Shown: one piece after another, positions 3,480 to 62,448 of the stretch | How positions within the stretch are numbered: the stretch's first letter is position 1 | Layout of the letters: each line of letters begins with the position of its first letter | From: Heptranchias perlo | Lineage: Eukaryota | Length of the DNA stretch: 64,000 bases | Assembly: GCF_035084215.1 (NCBI RefSeq) | Contig: NC_090359.1 | Location: forward strand, 13,516,001 to 13,580,000 | Direction: 5' to 3' | The notes under the pieces: model-generated | Database searches by the model: none | Told to the model about the DNA's origin: nothing | The model's input: the letters and a program-made list of their open reading frames with translations, nothing else | Translations under genes and position numbers: made by a program

Positions 3480-6332
3480 CTAGATAAACTGGGTTTGCTT
3501 GTGTTTCCTGTTCAGGAATAAGGCAATCCAAGAAGCAGAGATCAGAGAGACAGCGGTCACAGTCAGGGCCAAGATCAGGACCACCTCAGACGCCACACCT
3601 ATAAAGCAACAAGAAACCAATGGTTAGTGAAGGAAATACTGAGGGGAAAATGGAAACTAGCAGTCGGCCAACTCACCACCTGGAGACCTCTCCTGCATCC
3701 TTTGCTCAACCTCATTAAGGGGCTCAGTTGCCAGGTCTGTCACATGAGGATCCAGAATGACCAAGGGTCCAAGTGAGGCCTCACCCTCCCACTTCAACTC
3801 AGCATCACTCTCTGCAATATCAAACATTCCAGTTAGAGAGTAAAGGGTGACCTCCAACAATCAAGAGGATCAATGTCCTACCAGGTCCAGATACAAGATC
3901 CCTCCTTCCTGTGGAATCAACGAGGAAATCCCTTGTGGCACTGCAGTTGCCCAGATGACAACAGGCACACACGTCATTGGTCGATTCTTCCAATGGGGTC
4001 CAGCTCAACCAGAGAATCAGTTTATCAACCAGGTTGTCCATCACCCTTTAATCAACACATCCCTGAACGAGAGAGGGAACTTACATATTCTGGAAAGTAC
4101 AAGCCTTGTTCATGGAATCTCTCCGATCCACTGCAGCAACTTTCAGGTGACAGGTGATGAAAATCTGAGGGACACATTCAATACAAGTTGTTATTTCGTG
4201 ACCTCCTCCCAACATGGGGAACCCAATGTTTGGCTTCCTCTTACCAAGGAACGGTCATCTCCAAAGAAGCGGAACGCATCCAGGTCAAACTGGAGTTTGT
4301 CCAGCTCACGTTCACCTCTTGGCAACACAAAGGTTGAAAAGGAGTCCTCAGCTTTGCTGTCCAGGAGGCAACTGAAGAAAGATTTAAAAAGGGACAAAGT
4401 GAATTAAGTGAACCGATTGAGACAGAACCAGCTGGAGAAAGCAGAGAGCTCCTTACCCATGGGAGTCAATGATGTTGTATCTTGGGGTGGAATCCTTGTC
4501 TGGGCTCAATGTAGCTGCACAGCTGTCAATGTAGAGCTTCAAGGGCATGTGGTTGGTCATTGAAACAGAGGCCTCAATGTGAATGAGGTCACCCAGGTAG
4601 TAGACAGTCGAGGTGCGCTCTGTAAACCAGTCATCTGAAGTACAAGAGGAAAAGGGTTGGAGACAGTGGGTGTAACTCCCAGTGGGAGACGACAGAAAAG
4701 CACTCCCCATCCACCCATCACATACCGTTCATAAGACGCAGTGAGAATGACAGAAGCCCTTCTCCAGACTTGGTCGAGCTGAATGGGATCCAGGTGGGCT
4801 TGATAGGGTCACTGCTCACATTGCCCTTCCTGAAAGGACAGTACAGTAATTTCAGGACAACTTCACAGAACTGCACCTGCTGTAGACCTTATTTGCAATA
4901 GAGTAAAGATTCTTACCTGAAATAGTGGCACTCAATGGGAATGACTGCTCCATTAGTTCTCACAATAACAGATCCACGAGCATTTGGGGTGTGGTTCAGG
5001 TGGGTGGTGTCGACCAGGAAATCGCCAGCCATCTGAAAGACATCAGGTTAAGGAATGAAGAGCTGGTCTCATTGAACAAAAGCTATTTCTGGTCATTTTC
5101 CTACCCTGTTAAGCAGAAGTTTAAGGGGTTTCAGCTGCTCCTCAATGACACATGATTGAAGCAGCTCCACCATTGGTTGAAGTTGCCTGGAGCAGCCTCT
5201 GTTACTCTGCTCAGTCCACCTTCTATTACAGGGGACTTCAGGCCTGCAGTCAGAAACCCCTGAAATGATTGGCACTGCCAGATTTGATGAGCATTCTTTC
5301 CCATATAGATTAGAGCTTTCACCTAAAGGGGCTCAAGTTACCCCTGATATGGAGCACAAAACACAACATCACATTTAAATCTCATCTGTGTCCGTGGAAT
5401 CAATCGTATTGGCAGGTGTAACAACCAAAAGTGGAGTTCCCCTTCAATACAGTGTATCCCAATTATTGTTCCACTTGTTTCATCTTTCAAGGGAAGTCTC
5501 AACAGGAACTTCCACACTGAACATTCATTGACCACAAGTTGAGGCAACAGGCCTGAATATCCACAGGAAGGAACGGAAAAGATAAATCAATTGAGGCACA
5601 AAAGAACAGAGTGGTTTGGAGAAATGCAGGTGAAGGTTCAAGGTCAATAGAATTGAATCTCAGAGTTAGAGAGCGGCAATGACCCATTTAAGAAAGATGC
5701 AGTCCCTCAGTGACAAGTTGAAGTTCTTTTTAAATATAAAGCGAAGATTGACATGTCAACATAAAGAAGTAGTTTCACACAGGGTGATACTTCACAGTGG
5801 GCAAAAATTTATACACAGATTTCATTCAGGGATCTCCTCAGTGGCTGGAGTTTCACCCGATGTTAATGAGTTCAGAGTGGGCAGTAATCTACACAGTGAA
5901 ATTGGAGCAAGAGTTGAGGAATCACATTACCTGCAATCTGCTGCCACATTCATGGAGCCCATAGTCAAAGAGGACAGTGTGGTTCTGAGAGTAGATCCCA
6001 GTTGGCCGATAACCTGCTGTCTCCAGGGTCAGGTCAGCAGCTTTAATCAGGTGCCTGGTTCTAAATAAATCCATGTCTACCCTCACCAGCAGGTTCTGCT
6101 CTCCACACTGCACCATCACAGTCTGCAGTGGAGACAGACTTCTCCCCTCAGACACACTGAAATGGGAACCAAAGGGAGGGACAGGGAGAGGGACTCTCTG
6201 GGGCACAGGGGTGGGTTTTACTCTTCTCCATGGAAATCTCTGCCCTCTAAACTGTTGCCAAATATCAGAGCAACAAACCACTCCAACTAACACCAGCACT
6301 GGGAACAAACCTCTCACTACAAAATCCCCCAT
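3480..6332 (-). CDS. zp3: Zona pellucida sperm-binding protein 3-like (ZPC) copy 1; 9 exons: 6332-5931, 5032-4917, 4829-4726, 4634-4457, 4371-4245, 4164-4085, 4003-3882, 3811-3677, 3598-3480; ~460 aa
   Basis: Signal peptide; ZP-N (VQCGE, HECGS, IECHY); ZP-C ([40 protein letters not shown]); ZP3 Cys cluster CACCHLGNC; EHP LGPLVIL; TM exon. GT-AG introns keep frame (1383 nt); AATAAA at 3466-3461. Confidence 0.9.
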
Positions 6333-6377: not shown

Positions 6378-6688
6378 TTTTTTTCCCTTTTTTTTTGTGT
6401 TTTTTAGGCCCCCCTTTTATAAGAAGGGGGGGGGGGTGTAGGGTGTGCTTAAGTACTAAAAACCAAATAAAACGAAACCAGGCATCAAAATAAATTTTAT
6501 TTTCCTCGTCCAGGATGCACTCCAGCCCCTGCAGTGCCCACCGGTCGCGGAAAGCCTCAAGCGTACCGGCAGACACCGCGTGCTCCATCTCCAGGGCCAC
6601 CCGGGCGAGGAGCAACCCGCGAAAGAGAGGCAGACAAGCCGAGCGCCCGCCCCCACGGACCGCGAGCATCCTGGACCTGTGGATATCC
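6378..6688 (-). mobile_element. Tx1-clade LINE 3' fragment with A-rich tail abutting the ZP3 5' UTR
   Basis: ORF2 C-terminus (ALEMEHAVSAGTLEAFRDRW...LECILDEENKI), family 3' UTR, A tail joined to GGGTGCTGGTTGG. Confidence 0.9.
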
Positions 6689-6719
6689 AGGATGCACTCC
6701 AGTTTCGTCTAGTTTTCTG

Positions 6720-7995
6720 GTGGGTCAGTGGCGGGTGGACTCCCTGCCGGAGGAGCTCAGGCCTTTCGCCTGGAGTACCACGCACCTCCGGTACCTGGGA
6801 GTCTACCTCGGCCCGGCCGAGGAAGCCTGGCCGGCGAACTGGGAAGAGCTGGAGGCCAAGGTCGCCGCTCGCCTGGCGCGCTGGACAGGACTGCTCCGAG
6901 TGTTATCCTACAGGGGTCGAGTGCTGGTCATAAACCAGCTGGTGGCCGCCATGTTGTGGTACAGGTTGGTCACTTTGATCCCACCCCCCGAATTTGTCGC
7001 CAAGATTCAGAGGAAGTTCGTCGACTTCTTCTGGGCCAGAGGGATACACTGGGTCGCTGCCGCGGTCCTGAGTCTCCCGCTTAGGGAGGGCGGTCAGGGG
7101 CTGGTGTGCGTCCGCACCCAGGTGGCAACTTTCCGCCTTCGGACGCTGCGGTGATACCTGTACGTTGAGCGTCCTCTTAGATGGCGTGCGCTGGCGACGT
7201 ATTTTTTCCGCCAGCTGCACGGCCTGAACTCCGACACGCAGCTCCTGTTCGTCTCGCTGCTGGGCGGCCGCATGTCTTCCTCGCCCTCGTCTCTCGGCCG
7301 GACACGCCCTGGCGTACCATCCTGCTGTCCGGCGGAGACGGGGGTTCCCAGTGGGGTGCTCTCTACTCAGGGATCCTCCCGTGTTCCATCGGGGATCTGG
7401 GGTGGAGGGTGGCGTACGGAGCAGTCGCGTGCAACCGGCGGTTACGCCATTTCACGGACACCCAGGCCGCTTGTGATTTCTGCGGCCTGGAGGAGTCCGT
7501 GTTCCATCTGTACACTGGGTGTGCGAGACTGCAGCCCCTGTTTGATTATTTGAAGGGGCTGCTCCTCAAGTTCTGGCTGCATTTCAATCCCACGCTCCTG
7601 ATCTTTGGCCGCCCGGTGAGGAGGGGAGCGGGCAGGTCGGTGGACGTCCGCGTGGGCCTGCTCCTGGGCCTGTCCAAGGTGGCCATCCACAGGTCTAGGA
7701 TGATCGTGGTCCGTGGGGGCGGTCGCTCGGCCTGTCTGCCTCTCTTCCGCGGAATGCTCCGCGCCCGGGTGGCCCTGGAGATGGAGCACGCGGTGTCTGC
7801 CGGTACGCTCGAGGCTTTCCGCGACCGGTGGGCACCACAGGGGCTGGAGTGTATCCTGGACGAGGAGAATAAAATTTTAATTTGAACACTTGGTTTTGGT
7901 TTGTTTGGTTTTAGTATTTAAGCACACCCCACACCCCCCTCTTATAAAAGGGGGGCCTAACAAAATTAAAAAAAAGAAAAAAGGAAAAAAAAAAA
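6720..7995 (+). mobile_element. Tx1-clade LINE, 5'-truncated and internally deleted
   Basis: RYLGVYLG, LSYRGRVLVIN, LPLREGGQGL, zf-RVT CDFCGLEESVFHLYTGC, 3' UTR and A tail. Confidence 0.92.
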
Positions 7996-8446
7996 TCTGA
8001 AAGTGAAATAAAAATCTGAAAGTTTCTCTTTGTTTCAATCTCTTGGAATCATAACTTTGAATTATTTGATAATAATTTGATATTTTCACTGAAGTGGCTT
8101 TTCATAATCTGTTCAAGTTTATTACTTGTTAGTGATTGTGATGTTGAGACAATATTCAAAGCAATCAAGTTGTCTTGAGTGAATTTGCAAACCATCCATT
8201 GGTCAGAGAAATGGAAATTCCATCCCATGGATGGTGTGAATCGTCCCCAGTTCTAATATAGAGAATGGGTGTGTCTGAGGATTGGCAGCATGGGGGCATC
8301 AACTGGGCAAAGCATTGTGGGATGTGTCATTTTTAGTTTTGATTCTCATGAAATGTTGTTTGGTAAAATTCAGGATATTCAGCGAGAATGAGAGGCAGTG
8401 AAGATTACTGAATGCAATGTCACCCACACAAACATCTCCATTTGTG

Positions 8447-8815
8447 TCAGCTGTGGCTCAGTGGCAGCACTCTCACCTCAGAGTCAGAAGATTGTGGGTT
8501 CAAGTCATCATCCAGAGACTTGAGCACATAATCTAGGCTGACTAAGGGAGTGCTGTACTGTCGGAGGTGCCGTCTTTTGGATGTGATATTAAATCGAGGC
8601 CTCATCTGCTCTCTCAGGTGGACGTAAAATATCCCACAGCACTATTTCGAGGAAGAGCAGCGGAGTTCTCCCCAATATCTGGACCAATATTTATCCCTCA
8701 ACTAACATCACTAAAACAGATTATCAGGTCAATATTTCATTGCTGTTTTTGGGTCCTTGCTGGAGGCAAATTGACTGCCGCATTTCTTACCTTACAACAG
8801 TGACTACACCTCAAA
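8447..8815 (+). mobile_element. tRNA-derived Deu-domain SINE (SacSINE1-like)
   Basis: A box TGGCTCAGTGG, B box GGTTCAAGT, Deu core GAGGTGCCGTCTTTTGGATG...AAATCGAGG. Confidence 0.75.
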
Positions 8816-8949
8816 GGTGCGAACTATGCAGCAGTCAAAGCTACCAGATAATCCACACTGACTCGTAAAATTATGGCTCAACAACGTATGAAATGTGGTG
8901 ACATTGATATCCCAAAAGTGCCTTTAGAGATCATAATATCCTACTATTA

Positions 8950-9240
8950 CAGCACAGAAAGAAGCCATTCAGCCCATTGTGCCTATGCTGCCTCTTTGAA
9001 AGAGCTATCCAATTAGTCCCACTCCCCTGCTCTTTCCCCCTTCAAGTATTTATCCAATTTCCTTTTGAAAGTTATTAAATCTGCTTCCACCACCCGATGA
9101 GGCAATGCATTCCAGATCAGAACACTGAAAAAAGTTTCGTGTCACTTCTGGTTCTTTTACCAATCACCTTAAATCTGTGTTTGCTGGTTACTAACCGGTC
9201 TGCTACTGGAATCAGTTTCCCCTTATTTACTCCATCAATA
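8950..9240 (-). mobile_element. CR1 LINE 3' fragment
   Basis: Reverse complement of the CR1 3' end also seen at 61230-61670. Confidence 0.65.
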
Positions 9241-10604
9241 TAAAGATATTAACATGGACTGACTGAAGACGGCAATTCTATCACACCCAGTGCAAGTCAC
9301 AAGTTCCTAAACTTCACTTGGAAACACTGGATAATTACAGCTACAGCATCAACATTTGAATCCATTCATAGGGGTGAAGGAGATGAATGGAGAACCCATA
9401 GGATTTGGAAAGGTTGATTACAATTTGGTATGGAACACACAATAGGACTATAGGCAAATCGACACATTTATGGAGGAGCTGATTGTATTGTGTTTATGAA
9501 TTGATGGCATTGGGATGTGGAGTTTCAGGCAAAATATCTATTTAACTTGGTTTAAATGAAATGGTGATCCAGTAGAATTTAGAATTGTAATCTAGTATTA
9601 ACTGCACAATGGGATAAATACAAATTGATAGATTTATGGATGAGCTGCTTATATTGGGTTTATGAATTGATGGAACAGTAGTGGTATGGAAGAGTTTAGG
9701 AGCCTTATCTATTCAACTTAATGGTTCAAGTTAGTTGTTTAGTGCATTTACTACGTCTCCCAGAAGGAAGATTTTGTTTGCTGGAGTTTAGTTCGAGCTA
9801 TTTTTTCTGTACCATACCCAATTTATTATTCATGGGGGAGATTAACATGGGGTGGGGGGGCAGAAGATGAAAATGAAGGGAAATAGACAAACAGGGAACC
9901 TGCACTCCCCCATATGAGACCTATTTGACTCCAAACAAACAGTTTATTAGGAGTAATAGTGAGTGATTTCATAAGCTACCCCAACTACCTACTGAGGTCT
10001 GTAGCATCTTTGAAAAAAAAGCATCTGGATTGTTCTTCCCCAGGCAGATACTATTGTTTTAAAAATTGCCTATTGGACTGAAATTACTAGTTCACTTTCC
10101 TTGTGTTTTATTGGAACAAAATGTTACAGCAGCTGGTTTTGCATCATTAATGAGTTAAACAGTTGATAATATGCAGTACTAATAGGAACAGTAACTCATT
10201 ACTGTATTGTTCTTTGCATTGAAATCAGCAGTAATCATTTTACTGCATAAATACAATTTACACGCAAGGCAGACACATTGGCCCTCAACACCCAAGTCAC
10301 TACATTGATATGACCCCAGAAGAAAAAATGTCATGGGCAGAATCTCACCCGAAAGCCAATACATAGCCCAATGTAATTTGTTACAACAGCTGAATTATGT
10401 TAATCTGAAAAATAAGCAATCACTCAATTTACAAGGAGCCAAAACCCAGTCTTCTGTAACAGTTTATTTCCAGTTACTATTACATTTCACATCAAGAGCC
10501 CAGGTCTCACAGCTCTTAGCACAAAGTCACCATTGCTACAGGATAGGGGTTCTTCAGACTATAAACAGGAGTACTGAACAATAAGCTTTGTCCCTGCAGT
10601 CAGT

Positions 10605-13165
<2,561 letters not shown>

Positions 13166-13239
13166 CTTTAAATTAAATTTAACAAAACTAAACAACTCTA
13201 TTGAAGCAAGAAACTGAAAAACAGCCACCCAAAGCTCCA

Positions 13240-13430
13240 TATTTATACTGCTGGTTAATCCTGGGCGTGTCAGCCTAGATGATGAGTGACAGTTGGCAAT
13301 ACCCAATCAGAAATTACATCCTCTCTCAGAACACCAATCAAGAAAAGAGAGGAGGGGAGATGACACCCAGAGCCAGTCAGAACTTTGAAGGAGGAGCATC
13401 ATTGGCTGACAATTCAATAAAGATCCAATT
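13240..13430 (-). promoter_or_regulatory. Ferritin copy 1 promoter: TATA box and multiple CCAAT boxes
   Basis: TATAAATA on the minus strand at ~13247-13240; CCAAT/ATTGG at ~13303, 13334, 13401, 13425. Confidence 0.6.
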
Positions 13431-13470
13431 GCTTTGACTTTCCTCAAACTGTAAAATCTGTTTCCGTAAC

Positions 13471-13637
13471 CGGTGGGCACCGCAGGGACTGGAGTGCATC
13501 CTGGATCGATGTAATAAAATTATAATTTGACACTTATTTTGGGTTTATTGATTTACTGCACATAAACACAACCAACCCCCCCTCCCCTTCTTATAAAAGG
13601 GGGGCCTAAAACACAAAAAAAGGAAAAGCAAAAAAAC
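13471..13637 (+). mobile_element. Tx1 extreme 3' fragment upstream of ferritin 1
   Basis: CGGTGGGCACCGCAGGGACTGGAGTGCATCCTGGA, then 3' UTR with TATAAAAGGGGGG and A tail. Confidence 0.85.
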
Positions 13638-13925
13638 CATGGCTGCTCTTCCATCCCACACTCCAAAGAAAAAAAAATCTGATCGTGACCATATTCTTGA
13701 CCATAATCGACCTTTCTTTGATGGACCAATAAGGGAGACTCTGGGTTGCCCCAGGGTCACCAAACATAAACCATCACAAGTGGCCCTCTCAGGGCACCAC
13801 TAATATTGGATGGTCCAATCAAACTGAAAAGATACCAAAATAAGCATCAAGTGCCACCAAAAACAACAGGATACTTTCCCAATTAATTCCGGATTCTATT
13901 ATTGATGTCTGAAAGACAGTCTATA

Positions 13926-14008
13926 CCCTGCGGTGCCCAGCGGTCGCGGAAGGCATCAAGCGTAACGGTGGACACCACATGCTCCCTCTCCGGGGCCACC
14001 CGGGCACT
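13926..14008 (-). mobile_element. Tx1 ORF2 C-terminal fragment
   Basis: Matches the RVALE.EH.VS..TL.AFRDRWAPQG segment. Confidence 0.7.
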
Positions 14009-28794: not shown

Positions 28795-31700
28795 ATGGGG
28801 GATTTTGTAGTGAGAGGTTTGTTCCCAGTGCTGGTGTTAGTTGGAGTGGTTTGTTGCTCTGATATTTGGCAACAGTTTAGAGGCCAGAGATTTCCATGGA
28901 GAAGAGTAAAACCCACCCCTGTGCCCCAGAGAGTCCCTCCTCCTGTCCCTCCCTTTGGTTCCCATTTCAGTGTGTCTGAGGGGAGAAGTCTGTCTCCACT
29001 GCAGACTGTGATGGTGCAGTGTGGAGAGCAGAACCTGCTGGTGAGGGGAGACATGGATTTATTTAGAACCAGGCACCTGATTAAAGCTGCTGACCTGACC
29101 CTGGGGACAGCAGGTTGTCGGCCAACTGGGATCTACTCTCAGAACCACACTGTCCTCTTTGACTATGGGCTCCATGAATGTGGCAGCAGATTGCAGGTAA
29201 TGTGATTCCTCAACTCTTGTTCCAATTTCACTGTGAAGATTACTGCCCACTCTGAACTCATTAACATCGGGTGAAACTCCAGCCACTGAGGAGATCCCTG
29301 AATGAAATCTGTGTATAAATTTGTGCCCACTGTGAAGTATCACCCTGTGTGAAACTACTTCTTTATGTTGACATGTCAATCTTCGCTTTATATTTAAAAA
29401 GAACTTCAACTTGTCACTGAGGGACTGCATCTTTCTTAAATGGGTCATTACGACTCTCTAACTCTGAGATTCAACTCTATTGACCTTGAACCTTCACCTG
29501 CATTTCTCCAAACCACTCTGTTCTTTTGTGCCTCAATTGATTTATCTTTTCCGTTCCTTCCTGTGGATATTCAGGCCTGTTGCCTCAACTTGTGGTCAAT
29601 GAATGTTCAGTGTGGAAGTTCCTGTTGAGACTTCCCTTGAAAGATGAAACAAGTGGAACAATAATTGGGATACAGTGTATTAAAGGGGAACTCCACTTTT
29701 GGTTGTTACACCTGCCAATACCATTGATTCCACGGACACAGATGAGGTTTAAAAGTGATGTTGTGTTTTGTGCTCCATATCAGGGGTAACTTGAGCCCCT
29801 TAAGGTGAAAGCTCTATTCTATGTGGGAAAGAATGCTCATCAAATCTGGCAGTGCCAATCATTTCAGGGGTTTCTGACTGCAGGCCTGAAGTCCCCTGTA
29901 ATAGAAGGTGGACTGAGCAGAGTAACAGAGGCTGCTCCAGGCAACTTCTACCAATGGTGGAGCTACTTCAATCATGTGTCATTGAGGAGCAGCTGAAACC
30001 CCTCAAACTGCTGCTTAACAGGGCAGGAAAATGACCAGAAATAGCTTTTGTCCAATGAGACCAGCTCTTCATTCCTTAAGAACATAAGAACAAAAGAAAT
30101 TGGAGCAGGAGTAGGCCAATCGGCCCCTCGAGCCTGCTCCGCCATTCAATAAGATCATGGCTGATCTGATCCCAACCACAAATCTAAAGAACACAAGAAG
30201 TCGGAGCAGGACCCGGCCACATAGCCCCTGGGCCCTCTCCGCCACCCACAGGGCATTGACCGATCCGAACTCAGCTTCATGTCCAATTTCCTGCCCGCTC
30301 CCCATAACCCCTAATTCCCTTTACTTCTAGGAAACTGTCTATTTCTGTTTTAAATTTATCTAATGATGTAGCTTCCACAGCTTCCTGGGGCAGCAAATTC
30401 CACAGACCGACCACCCTCTGAGTGAAGAAGTTTCTCCTCATCTCAGTTTTGAAAGAGCAGCCCCTTATTCTAAGATTATGCCCCCTAGTTCTAGTTTCAC
30501 CCATCTTTGGGAACATCCTTACTGCATCCACCCGATCAAGACCCTTCACAATCTTATATGTTTCAATAAGATCGCCTCTCATTCTTCTGAACTCCAATGA
30601 GTAGAGTCCCAATCTACTCAACCTCTCCTCATATGTCCGCCCCCTCATCCCCGGGATTAACCGAGTGAACCTTCTTTGTACTGCCTCGAGAGCAAGTATG
30701 TCTTTTCTTAAGCATGGAGACCAAAACTGTATGCAGTATTCCAGGTGCGGTCTCACCAATACCTTATATAACTGCAGCAATACCTCCTTGTTTTTATATT
30801 CTATCCCCCTAGCAATAAAAGCCAACATTCCGTTGGCTTTCTTGATCACCTGCTGCACCTGCATACCAACTTTTTGATTTTCTTGCACTAGGACCCCCAG
30901 ATCCCTTTGTACTGCAGTACTTTCCAGTCTCTCGCCATTAAGAAAATAACTTGCTCTCTGATTTTTCCTGCCAAAGTGCATAACCTCACATTTTCCAATA
31001 TTATATTGCATCTGCCAAATCTCCGCCCACTCACCCAGCCTGTCTATATCCCCTTGCAGGTTTTTTATGTCCTCCTCACTCTCTACTTTCCCTCCCATCT
31101 TTGTATCATCTGCAAATTTTGATATGTTGCACTCGGTCCCCTCCTCCAAATCGTTAATATAGATTGTAAAGAGTTGGGGACCCAGCACCGACCCCTGTGG
31201 AACACCACTGGTTACTGGTTGCCAGTCCGAAAATGAACCATTTATCCCAACTCTCTGCTTCCTGTTTGATAACCAATCCTCCACCCATGCCAGAATATTA
31301 CCCCCAATCCCGTGATTTTTTATCTTAAGTAATAATCTTTTATGTGGCACCTTGTCGAATGCCTTCTGGAAGTCTAAATACACTACGTCCACTGGTTCCC
31401 CTTTATCCACCCTATACGTTATATCCTCGAAGAACTCAAGCAAATTTGTCAGACATGACTTCCCCTTCATAAAGCCATGCTGACTTTGTCCTATTAAATT
31501 ATGCTTATCTAAATGTTCCGTTACTGTCTCCTTAATAATAGACTCCAAAATTTTACCCACCACAGATGTTAAGCTAACTGGCCTATAATTTCCAGCCTTC
31601 TGCAGCCTGATGTAGGCAGGAAATCTCCAGCCTGATGTATTTCAGATGGCTGGAGATTTCCTGGTCTATACCACCCACCTGAACCATACCCGAAATGCTT

Positions 31701-33144
31701 GTGGATCTGTTATTGTGAGAACTAATGGAGCAGTCATTCCCATTGAGTGCCACTATTTTAGGTAAGAATCTTTACTCTATTGCAAATGAGGTCTGCAGCA
31801 GGTGCAGTTCTCTGAAGTTGTCCTGAAATTACACTCCTGTCCTTCCAGGAAGGGCAATGTGAGCAGTGACCCTATCAAGCCCACCTGGATCCCATTCAGC
31901 TCGACCAAGTCTGGAGAAGGGCTTCTGTCATTCTCGCTGCGTCTTATGAACGGTATGTGATGGGTGGATGGGGAGTGCTTTTCTGTCGTCTCCCACTGGG
32001 AGTTACACCCACTGTCTCCAACTCTTGTACTTCAGATGACTGGCTTACAGAGCGTACCTCGACTGTCTACTACCTGGGTGACCTCATTCACATTGAGGCC
32101 TCTGTTTCAATGACCAACCACATGCCCTTGAAGCTCTACATTGACAGCTGTGCAGCTACATTGAGCCCAGACAAGGATTCCACCCCAAGATACAACATCA
32201 TTGACTACCATGGGTAAGGAGCTCTCTGCTTTCTCCAGCTGGTTATGTCTCAATAGGTTCACTTTATTCACTTCGTCCCTTTTTTAATCTTTCTTCGGTT
32301 GCCTCCTGGACAGCAAAGCTGAGGACTCCTTTTCAACCTTTGTGTTGCCAAGAGGTGAACGTGAGCTGGACAAACTCCAGTTTCACCTGGATGCGTTCCG
32401 CTTCTTTGGAGATGACCGTTCCTTGGTAAGAGGAAGCCAAACATTGGGTCCCCCATGTTGGGAGGAGGTCACTAAATAACAACTTGTATTGAATGTGTCC
32501 CTCAGATTTTCATCACCTGTCACCTGAAAGTTGCTGCAGTGGATCGGAGAGATTCCATGAACAAAGCTTGTACTTTCCAGAATATGTAAGTTCCCTCTCT
32601 CGCTCAGGGATGTGTTGTATTAAAGGGTGATGGACAACCTGGTTGATAAACTGATTCTCTGGTTTAGCTGGACCCCATTGGAAGAATTGACCAATGACGT
32701 GTGCGCCTGTTGTCGTCTGGGCAACTGCAGTGTCACGAGCGAATTCCGACTTGATTCCAGAGGAAGGAGGGATCTTTTATCTGGACCTGGTAGGACATTG
32801 ATCCTCTCTATGTTGGAGGTCACCCTTTACCCTCTCTAACTGGAATGTTTGATATTGCAGAGAGTGATGCTGAATTGAAGTGGGAGGGTGAGGCCTCACT
32901 TGGACCCCTGGTCATTCTGGATCCTGAAGTGTCAGACCTGGCAACTGAGCCCCTTAATGAGGTTGAGCAAAGGATGCAGGAGAGGTCTCCAGGTGGTGAG
33001 TTGGTGGACTGCTAGTTTCCATTTTCCCTCAGTATTTGCTTCACTCACTAACCATTGGTTTCTTGTTCTGTTTTAGGTGTGGAGTCTGATGTGGTCCTGA
33101 TCCTGATCCTGGCCCTGACTGTGACTGCTGTCTCTGATCTCTGC
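28795..33144 (+). pseudogene. zp3: ZP3-like copy 2 (probably disabled); exon 1 28795-29196, exon 2 31646-31761, exon 3 31849-31952, exon 4 32036-32213, exon 5 from 32299, last exon from 33077 truncated
   Basis: Near-identical inverted copy of 3480-6332. Exon-5 acceptor AG changed to GG (32297-32298), 2-bp deletion in the TM exon, Tx1 insertion at ~33145 replacing the C-terminus, CR1 in intron 1. Confidence 0.85.
30077..31603 (-). mobile_element. Young 5'-truncated CR1 LINE in ZP3 copy 2 intron 1 (428-aa open RT frame 30277-31563)
   Basis: QHGF, YLDFQKAFDKV, GVPQGSVLGP, FADD motifs without stops; TTCTTATGTTCTT tail; absent from ZP3 copy 1. Confidence 0.95.
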
Positions 33145-33955
33145 TTTTTTTAGGCCCCCCTTTTATAATTAGTGGGGGTTTAGGGTGTGTTTGTGCAGAA
33201 AACCAAAATCCAGTGTCAAATTAAGATTTTATTATTTTGTCCAGGATGCTCTCCAGCCCCTGCAGTGCCCATCGGCGGAGATGGTGTCGCCATATTCCAT
33301 CGAGCTACACCCACCCCAAGTCTCAGGCCGACTAATAACAAAGGCCTTGCAAAAGAAAACCTCCTCTCCCCAATTCCCACTGTGTTTGGAGGGGGGCTCC
33401 TTTGCAGGATTTTGTAAACAAGAATATCCGTGATAGTGAGAGGGAGGGATGGTCGAATGGGAAGGAGGGAGTCTGCAGGGGTGGGCTGCTGCAGAAGTAG
33501 GTGGAAGAGGGGTGGGGTTGCACCTTAACAGGTGGATCTTCTGGTGGGCAGGGGGAGGAGATGTCTTCCCCTAGACAGCTGGAGCTGCCCAGGCTCAGTC
33601 CTGCACAGATTGAAAAGTAACTTCACCCAGGCAGCTCCAGCTGTTCTGGGCCAGACACTGGGGGGAAACCCCCTGTTCTGTGCGATCTTCTTTCCTCCCC
33701 CTACCTTCAGTTGATCACACTGCACCGCACCGACCTCCTCTTCCTCCCTCTGTTGGATGGTATCGGTCAGCAGCAGCACACCCCTCACAGTGAATGGTGG
33801 TCGTCTTCTTCTCCCTCCTTCCCTGTTGGTTGTTTGTTCCTCTCCTTCTCCTTCTCCCAGATTCAGAGGTATACAAGCAAGGGCTAGTACTTTTCACCCT
33901 GCTCTCCACCCAGAGCTCTCGCTCTGACCTCCACTCTGCTCTACTCAGCAGTATT
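33145..33955 (-). mobile_element. Mini non-autonomous Tx1: 5' UTR plus first ORF1 codons fused directly to the 3' end
   Basis: 33293-33955 aligns to the 5' UTR at 38457-39070; ATGGCGACACCATCTCCG joins the ORF2 end (RWALQGLESILDKIIKILI) and 3' UTR. Confidence 0.85.
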
Positions 33956-34403
33956 AACTGGCAAGTTCAGTCAGGCTGATTCCTGGATGGATTGATGGTC
34001 TGTCTGAAAGACATCCAATCGTATCCCAACAGTGACTCCTTATTTTTTCTTTTAGAAATTTATGAAATGGGACATTGGAAGTGATTGAACGAAAGGAGGA
34101 TCCGAAAGACATTGAGTTGGATCAAAAACAGTTTTTTACAATTTTCACCACTCCGCTCAGCTCAGGAGTGTGGGATGGAAGAGCAGCCGGGGGTTTATCA
34201 GTGACTTTTCCTGATGAGTCTGAAAGACATCCAATCGCATCAAAGAAGTGACCTTTTTGCTCCCAGGTTTTTTTTTAGGACTTTCTTTTTTCCATTCCCA
34301 ACAGCGACTTGTTTTTTCTTTTTTTAGGCCCCCCCTTTATAAGAAGTTGGGGGGTTCAGGGTGTTTTATGTGCAAAAATCCCAAAGAGAAACCAAACCAA
34401 GTA

Positions 34404-36377
34404 TCAAATTATATTATTTTCCTCGTTCAGGATGCAGTCCAGCCCCTGCGGTGCCCACCGGTCGCGGAAAGCCTCAAGCGTACCGGCAGACTCCGCGTGC
34501 TCCATCTCCAGGACCACCCGGGCGCGGAGAATTCTGTGGAAGAGAGGCAGACAGTCCGAGCGACCGCCCCCACGGGCCGCGAGCAACCTGCACCTGTGGA
34601 TGGCCACCTTGGACAGGCCCACGAGGACGTCCACCGACCTGCCCGCTCCCCTCCTAACCGGGCGGCCAAAGATCAGGAGCATGGGACTGAATTGGAGCCA
34701 GAACTTGGAGCAGCCCCTCCAAATAATCAAACAGGTGCTGCAGTCTCCCACACCCCGTGAACAAATGAAACACTGACTCATCCAGGCCGCAGAAATTGCA
34801 GGTGGACCGGGAGTCCGTAAAATGGTGTAAACGCCTATTGCACGCGACTGCTCCGTGCAACACCCTCCACCCCAGATCCCCGATGGAACACGGGAGGATC
34901 CCTGAGTAGAGAGCCCCCCACTGGGGACCCCCGTCTCCGCCGGACGGCAGGATGGTACGCCAGGGCGTGTCCGGGTAAGAGACAAGGGCGAGGAAGGGGA
35001 GAGTGTGCAGGAGCAGCCCGTACAGGAAATCCCTCCGTGCGGAGTGAAGAGGCACGGAGGGAATTTCCAAGACGGCTCAAGTTGAGGCGCAGCCTCCCGA
35101 GCCAGACTCAGCAGAGCGTCCAGCCGGTCGGCATCCTCCGGGCTGACCTTTGGCAGGTCCTCCCACAAAACTCTGCGCGCTTCCTCACTGGACGGATCAG
35201 GAGAGAACAGAGCCTCGTAGTAGGATCGAGCCCGGGCCCTGAATCCCTCCGGGTCCGAGACGAGGGACCCGTCGTCGGCCAGCAGCGTAAGGAGCTGTTT
35301 ACGGGCCCCCCCGCCGCTTTTCCAGCGAGGTCCAGGTGCAGGTCCCTCAGAGCGTCCTTCCTCTCCTCGTACACCTGCCGCAGGGCCGGATCCTCGGCGG
35401 CCTGACCGAGACGGGACTCCAGGCCAAGCACCTCCTGCTCCAACCGCCTGACCTCGGACTCCCGCCTCTTAGTCGACCCCCTCGCGTACTCTTGACAGAA
35501 GAGGCGGACGTGAGCCTTGCCCACGTCCCACCATAGCCTCAAGGAGGAGAAGCCTCCCCGCTTCCCTCTCCAGTCGCTCCAGAACAGACGGAACGAGTCC
35601 CGGAACCGCGCGTCCTCCAGCAGCCGGTTGTTAAAGTGCCAGTACGCGGACCCCGACCGGGCGCGGAACAGAGCGAGCTCCATCCACACCAGGTGGTGGT
35701 CCGAGCACGACACCGGCCGGATGGAGGCCGACGGGACGCAGGAGGCGTACGCCCGCGAAACGTACAGGCGGTCGATTCTGGTGCTCCCTCCTGCAGCCCT
35801 CACAAAGGTGAACTGGCTGGAGTCGGGATGGAGATTCCGCCAGACGTCCACCAAGTCGAAGGACCCGACCAGGTCCCTCAACTTCCCCGTCGCCGACCGG
35901 CGATCCGCGGGACCGGAGCGATCCCTCGCCTCGAGGGTACGGTTAAAATCCCCCCCGAGGATAATGCACTCGCCGGCGTCGACGGAGTTCAGGTAAGTGG
36001 ACACTTCCTCAAAGAAGCTCACTTGCTCGGCTCCGGACCAGGGGGCGTACACGTTCACCAGGTGAAGCGGCACGTCCCCGTGGCGAAGGGCTACGTGGAG
36101 CAAGCGGCCCGGCACCGGCTCCTTGACCCCCAAGATCTCCGGCTGAAAAGTCGGGGCCAACAAGATGGCCACCCCGCTCGAAACGCTGGCGAGGTGACTC
36201 AAGTAGACCCCCCCCTCCCCATTCCAGGATCCACGTGGCCTCGTCTCCCGGAACGGTGTGGGTTTCCTGCAGAAAGCACACCGCATACTTCCCGTCCCGC
36301 AGGACCGAGAACTTGTCAAATCTACGGCGGGCGTCTCTGCCGCCGTTGATGTTGAGGCTGGCTATGGTTATCTCCAT
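34404..36377 (-). pseudogene. Tx1 ORF2 remnant: AP endonuclease plus C-terminal zf-RVT, RT missing
   Basis: MEITIASLNING, FLQETH, GGDFN, RIDRLY, SDH motifs; frameshift in the G-run near 36210; no YADD/FADD region. Confidence 0.85.
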
Positions 36378-36406
36378 GGCAAGAGCACAGCGCAACCTAC
36401 TTAAAC

Positions 36407-38456
36407 CTAACGCGCGGAGGGAGCGGGGCCGCTAGTCGACCGCCACTCCCTCAAGAGCCCGGTGAGGAGAAACCTGAGCCGGCGCAACCCGACCCTGCCG
36501 CCGCCCTCCTCCGCGGCCACGGACGCGACGGCGGCCCGGACCGAGCAGATTAATTGCGCCGGCTCCGACCAACGGTCGAGGGCCAGCCGGACGCCATCGC
36601 GACGATGGCTCCAAACGGACACAAAATCCCGGAGCTCCTCAACGGGGATGAGGGGAGACTCGGTGCCGGGCACGAGGGCGTCCACCACCTCACTGGTGGC
36701 GAACTCCAAATCCTCCCCAGTGCCCACCACCGAGTCCCCGTCCTCCTCCGGATCATCGTCGCTCGCGGCCGACCCACTCCCCGCACAGGGTGCGGAGAAC
36801 GAGACGGCCGCGCCGGCCAGCCCCGCCTCTGTCACGATCCCACCCCCAGGATCGTCGGCAGAGGAGTCCCCCCCGGGCTCTACCGGGGGCTCCGGGTCAG
36901 AGGGCGGCGCCGGGCGGGGACCCTCCCCATCCTCCGGGCGGTGAAAAACAGGCACCCGGATATAGGGGCAAACCGGGGAAACCGGGGAGAACGTATACTC
37001 CAGTTCTCCCACCTCCCCCGGCTCCGTGCCCAGATACTGGGAGGAGGGGGTCCCCCCACCCACGTCGCCACCGACCGACCCGGCCCGTGAGATATTTTTA
37101 TTAAACCCCGCCACCAGGTCGAGCAGGTCCTGGGAGAGGTCGAGCCGAGGGCAGACGAATCCGGCCTCTTCGGCCTCGCCCGCCCCGGCACCCAGGACGC
37201 CCGACCCGGTGAACGGGGTACGTATGTCTATGGGCGGATCCGCGACCCCCCCTATCAGCAGGGTCTCTCCATCCCCCCCGGGCGGCACGGGCACGATCTC
37301 CTCCCCCCCGAGAGGCAGAAGACCCCCGCCGCTGTTTAGATGTAGCGGGTGGGGCCGCAGGATCCGCGAGTGGCGCCAACTCCCCATCCACGGGGGGCCG
37401 TCCCTTAGCAGGTTTCCCCCCCGCTTCCAGGGAGTGGCGCCTTTTCTTCTTGCCGGAGGGTCGCGGAGGGAGGGGGAGCCCCATGTCTGTTGGGGCCCCC
37501 ACCTCCGCTCCCTCCTGACCACCCGCCAGCCCGGGCTCTGTCGCGACCGCGAGATGTTGATCAGCCGCGGTCACGACCACGGCCTTGGGCTGGCTAGACC
37601 CGTTAACGTCCCGGGGACCAGCCTCCTGGTGCCTCGTCTTCTTCAGCGCTTTTCGCGGCCGAGGGTGCCCTCCTTCCCCCCCGGCGGAGGCCTCGTCGGC
37701 AACCTCCGCCCGCGCAGTTGACTCTCCCGACGCGGGGGCGGGGTTAGGGGGAGGAGCGGTGGCGGCGCCAGCCTTGGCCGCCGTAGCTTGTTTGGCGGCC
37801 TGGGAGGCGGGGCAGTTCTTCTTTAGGTGCCCCACCTCCTTACAGGCATGGCACCGCCCACCCTCCGCCGTCCAGAAGACACGGTAGGCTGTCCCGTCAT
37901 GGAGGGTGTTAAAGCCCCCCTCCGTCACCTCCTCCCGTGCCAGTGTAATAAAGGCTTGGCGACGGAAGGAGTAAACATGCCGGAGGCTGTTATCCTTGAG
38001 GCCGAGCGGCAGCGGCGTTATCCCCGACCTCACCTCCCCCAGTTGACGCAGGTGGGGGAGGAGGAGCTCATCCGGAAGGAAGGGCGGGACGTTGGAGATG
38101 ACAACCCGCTGCGCGGTGGCCTCCAGCGGGTCCACCGGCAGGAAAGTCCCGCCCACCGTGAGCCCCTTGCTCAGGGCCAGGGACACCGCCCGCTCGGACC
38201 TCAAAAAGACAACAGCCTTCCCGTAGACCTTGGAGGCCGCAACGATGGCCGAGGGGCCGACAACCTCGGCCATGGCCTTTACGCAGGCCTCAATGGTCAT
38301 GTTGGGGTGGGCGTAGGCCTTGACCCCATTCTTCCTCGTCAAGAGGCGAAACGGCGCCGGCCCAGCAGGAGCGGCAGAAACAGCAGGAGCGGCCGCCGTG
38401 GCAACTCCCGCATACGTCCTGCTGGGTCCCGGCACCGGCGAAGATGGTGACGCCAT
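36407..38456 (-). pseudogene. Tx1 ORF1 (gag-like, CCHC knuckle), frameshifted
   Basis: VVISNVPPFLPDE, CHACKEVGHLKKNC zinc knuckle; continues in a second frame (ORF 36407-37522). Confidence 0.8.
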
Positions 38457-39083
38457 AGTCTCAGGTCGATGGATGGAGACGGCCTTAATGGATAACCGCC
38501 TCTCCCACGTCTGCCAATATTAATTTGGGAGAGGGGCTCCTTTGTCCGATGTTTATGCCTTAAGAGGTATCGCTCACAAGAGCAGGAGAGCAAGTGAGGG
38601 AGGGATGGCGCCCAAAGAAAGGAGGGAGTCCGCAGGGGTGGGCTGCCGCTGAAGTGGGTCGAAGAGGGGCGGGGCTGCACCTTCTTCCTTCTGGTGGGCA
38701 GTGGGGAGGAGATGTCTTCCCCTAGACAGCCGAAGCTGCCTCGGCTCAGTCCTCCAAGGATGGAAACAAAAGAAAAGTAACTTCACCCAGGCAGCTCCAG
38801 CTGTCCCGGGCCAGACACTTGGGGGGAAACCCCCTGTCCTTTTATGGTCTTCTTCCTCCCCCTACCTCCAGCCGTCCACACCTCACGGCGCCGACCTCCT
38901 CTTCCTCCCTCTGTGTTGACGGCCGAACCCGCAGCAGCACACCCCTCACGGCTGATGTTGATGGTGATGGTGTTCTCCTTCTCCCTCCTTTCCTGTTGAT
39001 GGTTCCTCTCGTCTCCTTCTCCTCTCGCTGGCTGGCTGGCTCTGCTCTGCTCTGCTCTGCTCGTTGTCAGTACCACAGTGATG

Positions 39084-39210
39084 AACCTCTCACTACAAAA
39101 TCCCCCATGATACCAAACAACTCAACTATCACTTTCCCCACCAACCAGCACCTTTTATACACAACCTGCAGTCAGCTGACTCCAATTGTCCCAGATGAGG
39201 CTAAACGAGA
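39084..39210 (-). pseudogene. zp3: ZP3 promoter, 5' UTR and first 8 codons (third-copy stub)
   Basis: ATGGGGGATTTTGTAGTGAGAGGT (ATG at 39108) and leader match copies 1/2; TATAAAA 39159-39153; E-boxes CAGCTG 39173-78, CAATTG 39183-88, CAGATG 39192-97. Confidence 0.85.
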
Positions 39211-39223
39211 AAACTGGACGAAA

Positions 39224-39535
39224 CTGGAGTGCATCCTGGACCGAAATAATAAAATTATTATTTGACACTTATTTTGGGTTTTTTGGTTTACTGCACATGA
39301 ACACACCCTGAACCCCCCCCCCACTACTTATAAAAGGGGGGCCTAAAAACACACAAGGAAAAAGGGGGAAAAAAAGCCTCATTCTGACTGAACTTCCAGT
39401 CGACAAAAAAAACCACCCAAAACCCCCCTTCTTATGAAAGAGGGCTGAAAACACAAGGGAAAAAATTATTATGACACATATTCTGGGTTTATTGTTTACT
39501 GCACATGAACACACTCGAAGAATAAAAAAACAACA
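39224..39535 (+). mobile_element. Stack of Tx1 extreme 3' ends
   Basis: LECILDRNNKIII* plus 3' UTR (39224-39376), then two further partial 3' UTR copies. Confidence 0.8.
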
Positions 39536-39537
39536 CA

Positions 39538-40384
39538 AGGCCTCCGCCGGGGGGGAAGGAGGGCACCCTCGCGGAAAAAAGGCGGGGAGGAAAATCAAAC
39601 ATCTGGAGGCTGGTCCCCGGGATGCTGAACAATCGAGTGAGCCCGAGGCTGCGATCGTGACCGCGGCCGATCTACATCTCGTGGTCGCGACGGAGGCCGG
39701 GCAGATCGTTGGTCAGGAGGGAGCGGAGGAGGGGTCCCCAGCAGACCCTCCCTCCGCGACCCTCCGGAAAGAAAAAAAGGCGCCACTCCCTGGAAGCGGA
39801 GGGGAACCCTGCAAAGGGACGGCCCCCCGTGGAAGGGGAGTTGGTGCCTGACGCGGATCCTGGGGCCCCACCCTCCATTTCACACCATCGGCGGGAGTCG
39901 TCCACCACTCGGGGGGAGGAGACCGAGCCCGTGCCTCCTGGGGGGAATGGGGAGACCCTGCCTATGAGGGGGGTCGCGGATCCGGGCACGGAGGAGAGTA
40001 TACAGTTCACCGGGTCGGGCGTCCTGGGTGCCGGGGTGGGCGAGGCCGATGAGGCTGAATTCGCCCGCTCGCGGCTCGACATCTCCCAGGACCTGCTCAA
40101 CCTGGTGGCGGTGTGGGCGGGGGGAGCCCCTTCTCCCGGTCTCTGGGCACGGTGCCGGGTGAGTTGGGGAGCTGGAGTTCACTTACTCGCCGGTTTCCCC
40201 GACCGGTGGGCACTGCAGGGGCTGGAGTGCATTCTGGACAAAAATAATAAAATCTTAATTTGACACTGGTTTTTGGTTTTCTTTGGGTGTTTTTGCACAT
40301 AAACAAACCCGAAACCCCCCCTTCTTATAAAAGGGGGGCCTAAAAACACACAAAAAAGAAGATAAATAGAAAAAGAAAAAAAAA
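39538..40384 (+). mobile_element. Tx1 derivative: ORF1 middle fused to the ORF2 3' end and tail
   Basis: ASAGGEGGHPR...RPSGKKKRRHSLEA matches ORF1 at ~37000-37700; joins DRWALQGLECILDKNNKILI* near 40200. Confidence 0.85.
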
Positions 40385-61670: not shown

Positions 61671-61877
61671 AGAGTTAGGCTGGGTTAGCTGGAGGCACTG
61701 CCCCAGATGGGAGAACCAATGAATGAGGGAGTGCACAGAACGTCAGTGTTGGAGGATCAAAGAGTGTGGGACATGGAGATGTCGGGTTTGGCAGAGCTCG
61801 GAGAGGGCAAACCGAGGAGGGACTGACAGGGAATGTATTGAGGGACAGGAAAACAATGGAGGTCAATGAGAACCGAG

Positions 61878-62448
61878 AAGTGGAGGAGTGGGAGGGTGGA
61901 GGTATGGAGACTGGCAGGGAGATGATTGAAGAGATGGAGGAGTGGGAGGGTGGAGGTATGGAGGAGTGGGAGGGTGGAGGTATGGAGACCGGCAGGGAGG
62001 TGATTGAAGAGGTGGAGGAGTGGGAGGGTGGAGGTATGGAGACCGGCAGGGAGGTGATTGAAGAGATGGAGGAGTGGGAGGGTGGAGGTATGGAGACCGG
62101 CAGGGAGGTGATTGAAGAGGTGGAGGAGTGGGAGGGTGGAGGTATGGAGACCGGCAGGGAGGTGATTGAAGAGGTGGAGGAGTGGGAGGGTGGAGGAATG
62201 GAGACCGGCAGGGAGGTGATTGAAGAGGTGGAGGAGTGGGAGGGTGGAGGTATGGAGACCGACAGGGAGGTGATTGAGGATATGGAGGAGTGGGAGGGTG
62301 GAGGAATGGAGACTGGCAGGGAGGTGATTGAAGAGGTGGAGGAGTGGGAGGGTGGAGGTATGGAGACCGGCAGGGAGGTGATTGAAGAGGTGGAGGAGTG
62401 GGAGGGTGGAGGAATGGAGACCGGCAGGGAGGTGATTGAAGAGGTGGA
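61878..62448. repeat. 54-bp purine-rich minisatellite, ~10 copies
   Basis: Unit GAGGAGTGGGAGGGTGGAGGTATGGAGACCGGCAGGGAGGTGATTGAAGAGGTG, with one partial internal duplication. Confidence 0.95.

Follow-up and report, generated by a model that had tools for sequence, protein, structure and literature searches.

The window analysed here is a 64,000-bp stretch of the 3.25-Gb genome of Heptranchias perlo (C38:13,516,001–13,580,000; C and L numbers are our labels for sequences and loci). It contains two whole ZP3 genes, one ZP3 stub, and three ferritin genes, followed by a stretch with transfer RNA (tRNA) genes and a G protein-coupled receptor (GPCR) gene, and it is one unit of a ZP3/ferritin array of ~8 Mb (C38:9.3–17.8 Mb). 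At all six ZP3 and ferritin gene starts, a long interspersed element (LINE) of the Tx1 clade lies within ~230 bp of the TATA box (Table 1). We consider it highly probable that this element has a real insertion preference and captures the promoters beside which it lands.

A preliminary description of this DNA had placed the family within ~250 bp of the TATA position at the six gene starts, and its coordinates were confirmed, including those of the copies upstream of ferritins 1 and 2 (from 13461 and 19226), the pieces 5' of ferritin 3 (19843–20433), the copy at 39224 beside the ZP3 stub, and the join to exon 1 of the stub at 39075. At ferritin 3, the target-site duplication (TSD) AAGAGTTTGGGAA begins directly after the TATA box (20768–20775), as had been proposed. 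ZP3-1 and ZP3-2 share the tail junction AAAAGG/GTGCTGG (at 6378 and 28749), and the TATA-site insertion with the same 5' junction is common to 23 of the 30 closest ZP3 loci, in agreement with the proposal of one ancestral event that was later duplicated. In these 23 loci, the native promoter with its TATA and CCAAT boxes is replaced by TATAAAAGGGGGG of the element, ~90 bp 5' of the ATG (28696–28749 and 6378–6430 in the window); the other seven loci retain the native TATA box, three of them without a Tx1 match in the 1.5 kb upstream. Exon 1 is open in all 23 loci, which says little because the loci were picked by similarity. Judged from their sequence, these ZP3 copies may possibly use an exapted element promoter, or they may be a silent class.

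Table 1. Features of the window; positions are those of the 64,000-bp stretch.
Feature	Position	Strand	Remark
ZP3-1 gene, 8 exons, ATG at 6332	3530–6332	-	94–98% identity to ZP3-2
Tx1 3' piece, poly(A) joined to the ZP3-1 TATA site; its own TATAAAAGGGGGG in place of the native TATA	6378–6684	-	
3' portion of Tx1 ORF2 plus tail, in head-to-head arrangement with the ZP3-1 TATA-site copy	6684–7995	+	
Flank; start matches a site ~230 bp 5' of a ferritin TATA (antisense)	8010–8440	+	transduced by at least 7 dispersed copies
Ferritin 1, TATA 13240–13247, four CCAAT words upstream	10400–13247	-	
Older, divergent Tx1 tail, ~220 bp upstream of the ferritin-1 TATA	13461–13636	+	
Ferritin 2, TATA 19119–19129	15850–19129	-	
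Short Tx1 tail, ~100 bp upstream of the ferritin-2 TATA, then antisense ZP3-promoter snippet (19302–19370)	19226–19300	+	
Two older Tx1 pieces (minus, then plus) 5' of ferritin 3	19843–20433	.	
Tx1 3' piece, 13-bp TSD right after TATAAATAG of ferritin 3	20786–21028	+	identical insertion in 22 of 30 fetched loci
Ferritin 3, GTG at the start-codon position in the window copy	21081–23100	+	
Old Tx1 3' end, ~75% identity	26073–26420	+	
3' portion of Tx1 ORF2 plus tail, in head-to-head arrangement with the ZP3-2 TATA-site copy	26636–28441	-	
Tx1 3' piece joined to the ZP3-2 TATA site	28441–28749	+	
ZP3-2 gene	28795–33120	+	exon-1 ZP-N match under the Pfam cut-off; GT..AG joints with six introns in contigs of RNA-like runs
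Internally deleted Tx1 (5' UTR and tail), end in the last ZP3-2 exon	33145–33950	-	
Mosaic element head: antisense ZP3-promoter pieces (CCAAT boxes) and A-runs	33950–34300	-	
Long Tx1 (5' UTR, ORF1, endonuclease, internal deletion, tail), sense fusion to ZP3 exon 1 at 39075	34310–39075	-	ZP3-promoter-headed class
ZP3 core promoter and exon-1 stub (E-box, TATA 39151–39159)	39076–39200	-	head of the long Tx1 element
Clustered older Tx1 tails with a piece of ORF1, 5' of the ZP3 stub; last tail with an antisense ZP3-promoter snippet	39224–40384	.	

Raw copy counts are inflated and have little meaning, because the window block is an array unit amplified by duplication: for the ferritin-3 copy, 22 of the 30 best fetched matches were the identical insertion with identical flanks. 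The tails in the window nevertheless fell into 11 distinct 3'-junction (flank) clusters, and thus the local density does not derive from one or two duplicated insertions. In a self-BLAST of Tx1, no match was found in 40.4–64 kb or at 200–720 of the window, which agrees with the earlier remark that no young copy lay in the former interval or at the CpG promoter in the latter. Tx1 tails were also absent from 39 kb beside another array unit. Targeting of tRNA genes was rejected, as none of the five in the window has a Tx1 neighbour.

The assignment to the Tx1 clade was borne out. Intact copies elsewhere in the array have open reading frames (ORFs) of 682–684 aa (ORF1) and 1301 aa (ORF2). In Pfam, ORF2 matched Exo_endo_phos and RVT_1 above the cut-off and zf-RVT below it (E 0.00095); it was 50% identical to ORF2 of Xenopus Tx1 (YTX2) over its full length (1299 aa), whereas the match to human L1 ORF2 reached 274 bits over residues 2–861. 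By sequence, the element is thus nearer Xenopus Tx1 than L1. The most identical named protein fragments came from stingray (71%) and horn shark (67%), each covering at most one third of ORF2. A homolog search with ORF1 gave one match, and a putative CCHC zinc knuckle in ORF1 (zf-CCHC) was a weak Pfam match under the cut-off (E 0.0034). Poly(A) tails, 5' truncation, and TSDs were all present. The long copies are 96–99% identical to one another, and therefore the family is young. The 3' untranslated region (UTR) terminates in TATAAAAGGGGGGCC and includes TATAAAAGGGGGG, which resembles a TATA box; its predicted fold was no better than that of shuffled sequences (z 1.45). TSDs were 12–16 bp long in 53 of 65 sites, and the first base was A in 58 of 65, which is partly an artefact of extending the TSD into the poly(A). 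No target-site consensus stood out upstream of the insertions at these 65 sites. The preliminary description had noted that target sites share little beyond an A-rich start, and a purine/A start with no motif is all that was common to them.

It had also set the family apart from known Tx1 elements, whose targets are multicopy sequences. This contrast was not upheld, since the targets here are multicopy too. The ZP3 5' UTR motif had 86 exact matches genome-wide, of which 61 were on C38:9.5–17.8 Mb, six were dispersed, and 80 lay outside C1–C10; ZP3 exon 1 had 201 candidates in the genome. Ferritin exon 1 had 144 matches, with 67 on C38 and 29 on C43 among the first 100 listed. The array is larger than that of carp, for which the accessible part of one report lists 41 ZP3 genes (PMC13704971). 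Further array-related contigs (C725 and C1048) and a separate tandem ferritin array (C43:4.27–4.63 Mb) were observed; some unplaced contigs are possibly uncollapsed haplotypes.

To separate insertion from amplification, distinct junctions were counted instead of copies. Hand curation gave 42 distinct junctions, namely 18 in ZP3, 13 near ferritin promoters, and 11 in a subtelomeric element head described below. With 0.09–0.61 junctions expected (a target of ~1 Mb at 0.09–0.63 insertions per Mb), this is a 70- to 470-fold excess, which is overstated because the snippets carried by dispersed copies (see below) record successful sources only and may stem from alleles that have since been lost. Nine of the 18 ZP3 junctions were within 150 bp of the TATA box (p = 1.6e-5), seven were in intron 1, and two were further 3', spanning −150 to +2845 relative to the TATA box. 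For ferritin, 11 of 13 lay within 350 bp of it (range −910 to +42). Neither TATA nor CCAAT stood at a fixed distance from the ZP3 and ferritin junctions, and the contexts of the hot sites shared no motif. The 11 junctions in the subtelomeric head fell within 0.7 kb; 21 matches to the marker of this head occur in the genome.

The ZP3 TATA site was struck by at least two element sublineages. A single clade for the elements at this site was rejected by the approximately unbiased (AU) test (p = 1.3e-4; six long-branch rows were left out beforehand); the rejection rests on L123, which is 14–18% from the other dispersed TATA-site copies, and p rose to 0.22 with L123 removed and a copy from C1417 added. 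Another copy (L050) arrived at the same site with an intron snippet. The distinct flank clusters and the two sublineages at one site rule out one or two duplicated insertions as the full explanation, an outcome that the preliminary description had named as a challenge to its own proposal.

These junctions bear on an account with no insertion preference, in which insertion is random and the pattern arises from selection of copies behind germ-line promoters together with segmental duplication and gene conversion. The massive amplification, the ordinary DNA at most dispersed sites, and the restriction of the snippets to successful sources are all compatible with it. Duplication cannot explain the number of distinct sites, because it multiplies copies and not junction positions, and the 133 genomic tails in the array sequences fell into 28 flank clusters. 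Since one nucleotide position was also hit by two sublineages and the small subtelomeric head by 11 insertions, we regard this account as improbable.

The exact tail motif had 504 matches genome-wide, and the dispersed sample consisted of the first 100 of these, on C1–C8 (seven loci were dropped before the snippet analysis). Dispersed copies were mostly 5'-truncated, with a density of 0.093 per Mb or, by extrapolation, ~300 genome-wide. Of 67 TSD-bounded copies, 42 had a snippet of other sequence between the tail and the TSD, and 33 of the 42 snippets mapped to ZP3, ferritin upstream DNA, element heads, or the element 3' end, compared with 1/148 reversed and 3/119 distal segments. The ZP3 TATA-site flank was carried by six dispersed copies over lengths of 8 to ~320 nt. 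Copies that share a snippet diverge less from one another than from the rest (7.7% within vs 12.7% between groups; p = 2e-4, 34 copies), and by this sequence comparison the snippets are 3' transductions inherited from source copies, some of them serial. Random template jumping is disfavoured as their origin, as they track the sublineage and the TATA snippet begins 5' of any ZP3 mRNA. An assignment of the CCTTTTGAT snippet to ZP3 intron 1 was wrong; its origin is a part of the subtelomeric head that resembles a ZP3 intron. Recurrent snippets for which no source was found (L033 and L108; L117 and L180; L163 and L165) point to further source loci.

Long copies were concentrated in the arrays. The ORF2-start motif had 123 matches; among the first 100 listed, 72 were on C38:9.3–17.7 Mb, nine in the C43 ferritin array, and 13 on C1–C37, so that 81 lay in C38:9.3–17.7 Mb and C43:4.46–4.61 Mb, 0.27% of the genome. 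A snippet led to a duplicated locus close to the chromosome ends, which accounts for ten of the 13 matches on C1–C37 and for several others on C49 and on small contigs. Three kinds of head precede the element body. The first is the ZP3 promoter with the start of exon 1 in the sense direction, found in 17 of 30 ORF1-start loci by our own reading and including the stub in the window. The second is the ferritin promoter used divergently, with the gene still attached in L213 and L251; most ORF1-start loci other than the ZP3-headed ones are Tx1 trains on this promoter. The third is subtelomeric; it contains CCAAT words as well as 150 bp of sequence that is 90% similar to ZP3 intron 1. Stretches selected for Tx1 richness contained head-to-tail trains of 2–5 elements with a period of ~7 kb and intact copies, in which every new tail ends in the head of the next element.

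The subtelomeric locus itself (L249:6200–7130, L250) occurs on at least six chromosomes, with an AT-rich satellite, CCAAT words, possible short exons, and the ZP3-intron-like piece. One long copy (L229, C1417:28001–38000; L210:770–960) has its 5' end 32 nt past the ZP3 TATA box and lies beside a tRNA-like repeat (tRNA-Tyr by eye, with no call from ARAGORN). It is only suggestive of a 5' transduction because it has no TSD, though its start coincides with the predicted ZP3 transcription start site (TSS). Two further long copies, on C1 and C22, lie in one AT-rich satellite (L044, L208/L248).

To explain these observations, we propose an active Tx1 LINE with a weakly sequence-specific endonuclease (TSDs mostly 12–16 bp with an A start) that would insert anywhere at low density and far more frequently in the first ~kb of a few multicopy transcription units, namely ZP3, ferritin, and its own heads. 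During the activity of the element, the endonuclease would nick the most open DNA, presumably the first kb of genes that are hyperactive in the oocyte. Germ-line transcription from the host promoter could then make a copy inserted there the next source, and the imprecise 3' end of the RNA from this copy would tag the offspring with flanking sequence. The element head, as an active promoter itself, would attract the next insertion and so give rise to trains, while the redundancy of the array would make promoter hits tolerable and unequal exchange may multiply genes and trains. We assign a probability of roughly 0.55 to this whole reading, with open chromatin as the cause of the preference. A stronger form is a tentative proposal that we find possible but somewhat doubtful: the LINE would home actively to the most transcribed RNA polymerase II (Pol II) starts of the oocyte and capture their promoters in a self-reinforcing cycle that builds trains, aids array expansion, and perhaps leaves many ZP3 copies on the element TATA.

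In contigs of runs guessed to be RNA, ZP3 exons were joined at GT..AG with six introns, and one such run gave pieces 98–100% identical across the Tx1 5' UTR, ORF1, and endonuclease. In the accessible parts of the reports, zebrafish follicles contain abundant zp3 and fth1 (PMC1488847), and catfish ZP3 genes are amplified and ovary-specific (PMC13704971). By analogy, we infer that the ZP3/ferritin units are expressed in oocytes.

Several points weigh against the open-chromatin reading. The snippet junctions are biased to copies that became sources, perhaps on alleles now lost, which inflates the fold enrichment. The array loci were sampled through similarity or for their richness in Tx1, and the reference set for the snippets was assembled only after the snippets had been seen. 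None of the listed runs is recorded as RNA. Among the listed pieces of RNA-like contigs, none bridges the ZP3–Tx1 junction at 39075, and the tissue of these runs is not on record. At rebuilt dispersed sites, CpG islands (3/63 vs 7/118 controls) and TATA boxes within 50 bp (5/63 vs 7/118) were not enriched, and several CCAAT matches at dispersed sites fall in common repeats. In an older replicate set, strict CCAAT reached 2/18 vs 0.88 expected (p = 0.21; 12 of 30 loci had no TSD call, leaving 18), and a looser motif was below expectation (2 vs 3.3). Moreover, consecutive hops within a locus class outnumbered those between classes (~12 vs 4–5 by eye), a bias that open chromatin alone does not predict.

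This hop bias is better accommodated by homing guided by RNA or locus. In this account, read-through or nascent Tx1 RNA that includes head and flank sequence would base-pair with homologous DNA, or remain close to it, and thereby return the endonuclease to its locus class of origin, so that promoters are hit as RNA cargo. Same-site re-insertions are in line with it: the TATA snippet was doubled in place in 4/30 ZP3 loci, the ferritin-upstream 8013 site received two hits in L059 and four in L063, and further doubled insertions were found in L032 and the C22 copy. RNA 3' ends are variable, some within the 3' UTR and some hundreds of bases into the flank. At 12 of 83 empty sites (0.14 expected), a second Tx1 piece lay no more than 1.3 kb away, although some of these pairs could each be one event parsed wrongly. 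Such homing accounts better than open chromatin for same-site and same-class hops, and both could act together. However, new junctions retain poly(A) and occupy new positions, jumps between locus classes across chromosomes occur (L083, L146/L156), and the capture of likely oocyte-gene promoters would be left unexplained except by source selection. As an alternative to the open-chromatin reading, RNA-guided homing therefore seems to us fairly unlikely.

The preliminary description had suggested targeting by Pol II promoter chromatin or by factor tethering. A third mechanism takes up the latter: protein contacts would tether the element, genome-wide, to a factor at Pol II promoters (NF-Y, TBP, or one that binds the E-box), and selection would purge hits at single-copy promoters. 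Nine of 74 TSD calls were dropped for this analysis (duplicates, tandem repeats, or inside Tx1), and the controls were within-locus only, as two patterns for a control LINE family gave three and five matches and were too specific. The strict CCAAT (NF-Y) motif, one of ten motifs tried, occurred within 150 bp of 13/65 dispersed sites vs 4.2 expected (permutation 0/5000), and within 200 bp the NF-Y motif was enriched 3.75-fold, the CAGSTG E-box 1.7-fold, and TATA 1.87-fold. In addition, CCAAT words are present in all hot references, and some dispersed sites are promoter-like (L123, L049). These signs of tethering are opposed by the non-significant CCAAT replicate, the lack of fixed TATA or CCAAT spacing, junctions that run through intron 1, the absence of the strict NF-Y motif from the ZP3 promoter, and the weak zinc knuckle that is all Pfam gives in ORF1. 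Recurrent promoter insertion is known from Tf1, Ty3, and Dictyostelium TRE5-A, which are LTR (long terminal repeat) elements or Pol III-tethered; the fixed spacing to a promoter element seen in such factor-tethered elements is lacking here. We consider tethering quite unlikely. Of the promoter-targeting claim, the gene-start preference stood, as it goes beyond duplication, while the gene body, chiefly intron 1, holds half of the ZP3 junctions, and element heads are hit as frequently as gene promoters. Its genome-wide form drew little support, since dispersed sites were not enriched for CpG islands or near TATA boxes; most are ordinary DNA, and the case for it is weak. The dispersed sites neither prove nor exclude general targeting, because selection would purge single-copy promoter hits. 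Empty versions of these sites had almost no shared spanning sequence. Several dispersed copies (L054, L055, L034, L078, L178/L179) lie just 5' of a TATA box in apparently one LTR family, as judged by eye.

Transduction by L1 is known to tag source elements, the flank and poly(A) being inherited, sometimes in series. Unlike in L1, 3' transduction here is very frequent (42/67), often 8–60 nt long, and indicative of few locus classes. In its accessible part, PMC4494074 describes the Tx1 clade (Xenopus Tx1L, Keno, Kibi, Koshi, and crocodilian Tx1-Mar), with which the element shares an endonuclease–reverse transcriptase ORF2 and a preference for multicopy DNA, and lists transposons, small nuclear RNA and 5S genes, satellites, and microsatellites as targets. 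Its multicopy targets thus follow the usual Tx1 pattern, but, unlike those listed, they are 5' regions of amplified protein-coding genes and its own heads, hit at many positions with no shared motif and with a large dispersed background. The tandem insertion of copies resembles that described for SINEU-3 in the same source. A sequence-specific Tx1 element is recognized there by one target sequence in >20% of flanks. No target here reached 20%; long copies alone exceed it by array location, but after amplification. By this sequence measure, the element is not a sequence-specific Tx1 of the Keno, Kibi, or Tx1L type.

Mouse L1 also carries several non-homologous heads on one body, through replacement of its 5' UTR and promoter by heads that, in the accessible text of PMC3600994, come from unknown sources or older L1 families; in contrast, the donors here are identifiable host promoters still attached to genes. 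Same-orientation trains formed by insertion beside an existing copy are found in HeT-A/TAHRE arrays (PMC5537684) and in double-insertion dimers of R1 or the P element (PMC5932611), as far as the accessible parts of these sources go. Unlike HeT-A/TAHRE and R1, the trains here do not lie at telomere ends or in ribosomal DNA but begin at captured gene promoters within gene arrays. By analogy with the HeT-A 3' promoter, the TATA look-alike in the Tx1 3' UTR could serve the next unit. The roo cluster at the CG18446 promoter and the hsp promoter hot spots of Drosophila share recurrent insertion at accessible promoters, but they involve LTR or DNA elements, without capture-and-source feedback in the accessible description (PMC6415491).

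The element thus combines Drosophila-like promoter hot spots, L1 head replacement, and double-insertion trains; it is narrower genome-wide than first proposed and richer in anatomy, with promoter capture, tandem trains, and a 3'-transduction record that the preliminary description had not noticed. No literature connecting Tx1 to the targeting of promoters or TSSs, to oocytes, or to sharks was found by title or abstract start, in a search whose coverage excluded most subscription papers and Repbase reports. L1-type promoter swaps are known with mostly unknown donors, and Tx1 is known for its choice of multicopy targets; the donors and the start of such a preference can both be read here in one genome, where donors attached to genes, intact sources, and transduced tags yield a dated path of source sites. 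LINE targeting of Pol II starts and the shaping of egg-coat gene amplification by retrotransposon trains become testable. If true, the active-homing cycle would show the origin of both Tx1 target specificity and L1-style promoter swaps.

Other features of the window were also noted. The ferritin-3 copy (21081–22830) has a GTG start, compared with ATG in L003, and its exons 2 and 4 look shortened; for these reasons, it is likely a pseudogene. Intron 1 of ZP3-2 holds a young, unrelated LINE piece that codes for reverse transcriptase (30080–31630; 454-aa open frame); it is not in the other 29 sampled ZP3 loci and is 99–100% identical to a C5 flank (L101). In L144, L153, and L159, a ~50-bp minisatellite adjoins the native ZP3 promoter, ~260 bp 5' of the ATG. 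The remaining part of the window contains five tRNA genes (41918–51375; an Rfam scan gave tRNAs only), a single-exon rhodopsin-family GPCR (59590–60555), and a 54-bp minisatellite with long open frames (61876–62449), which is also present beside another array unit.

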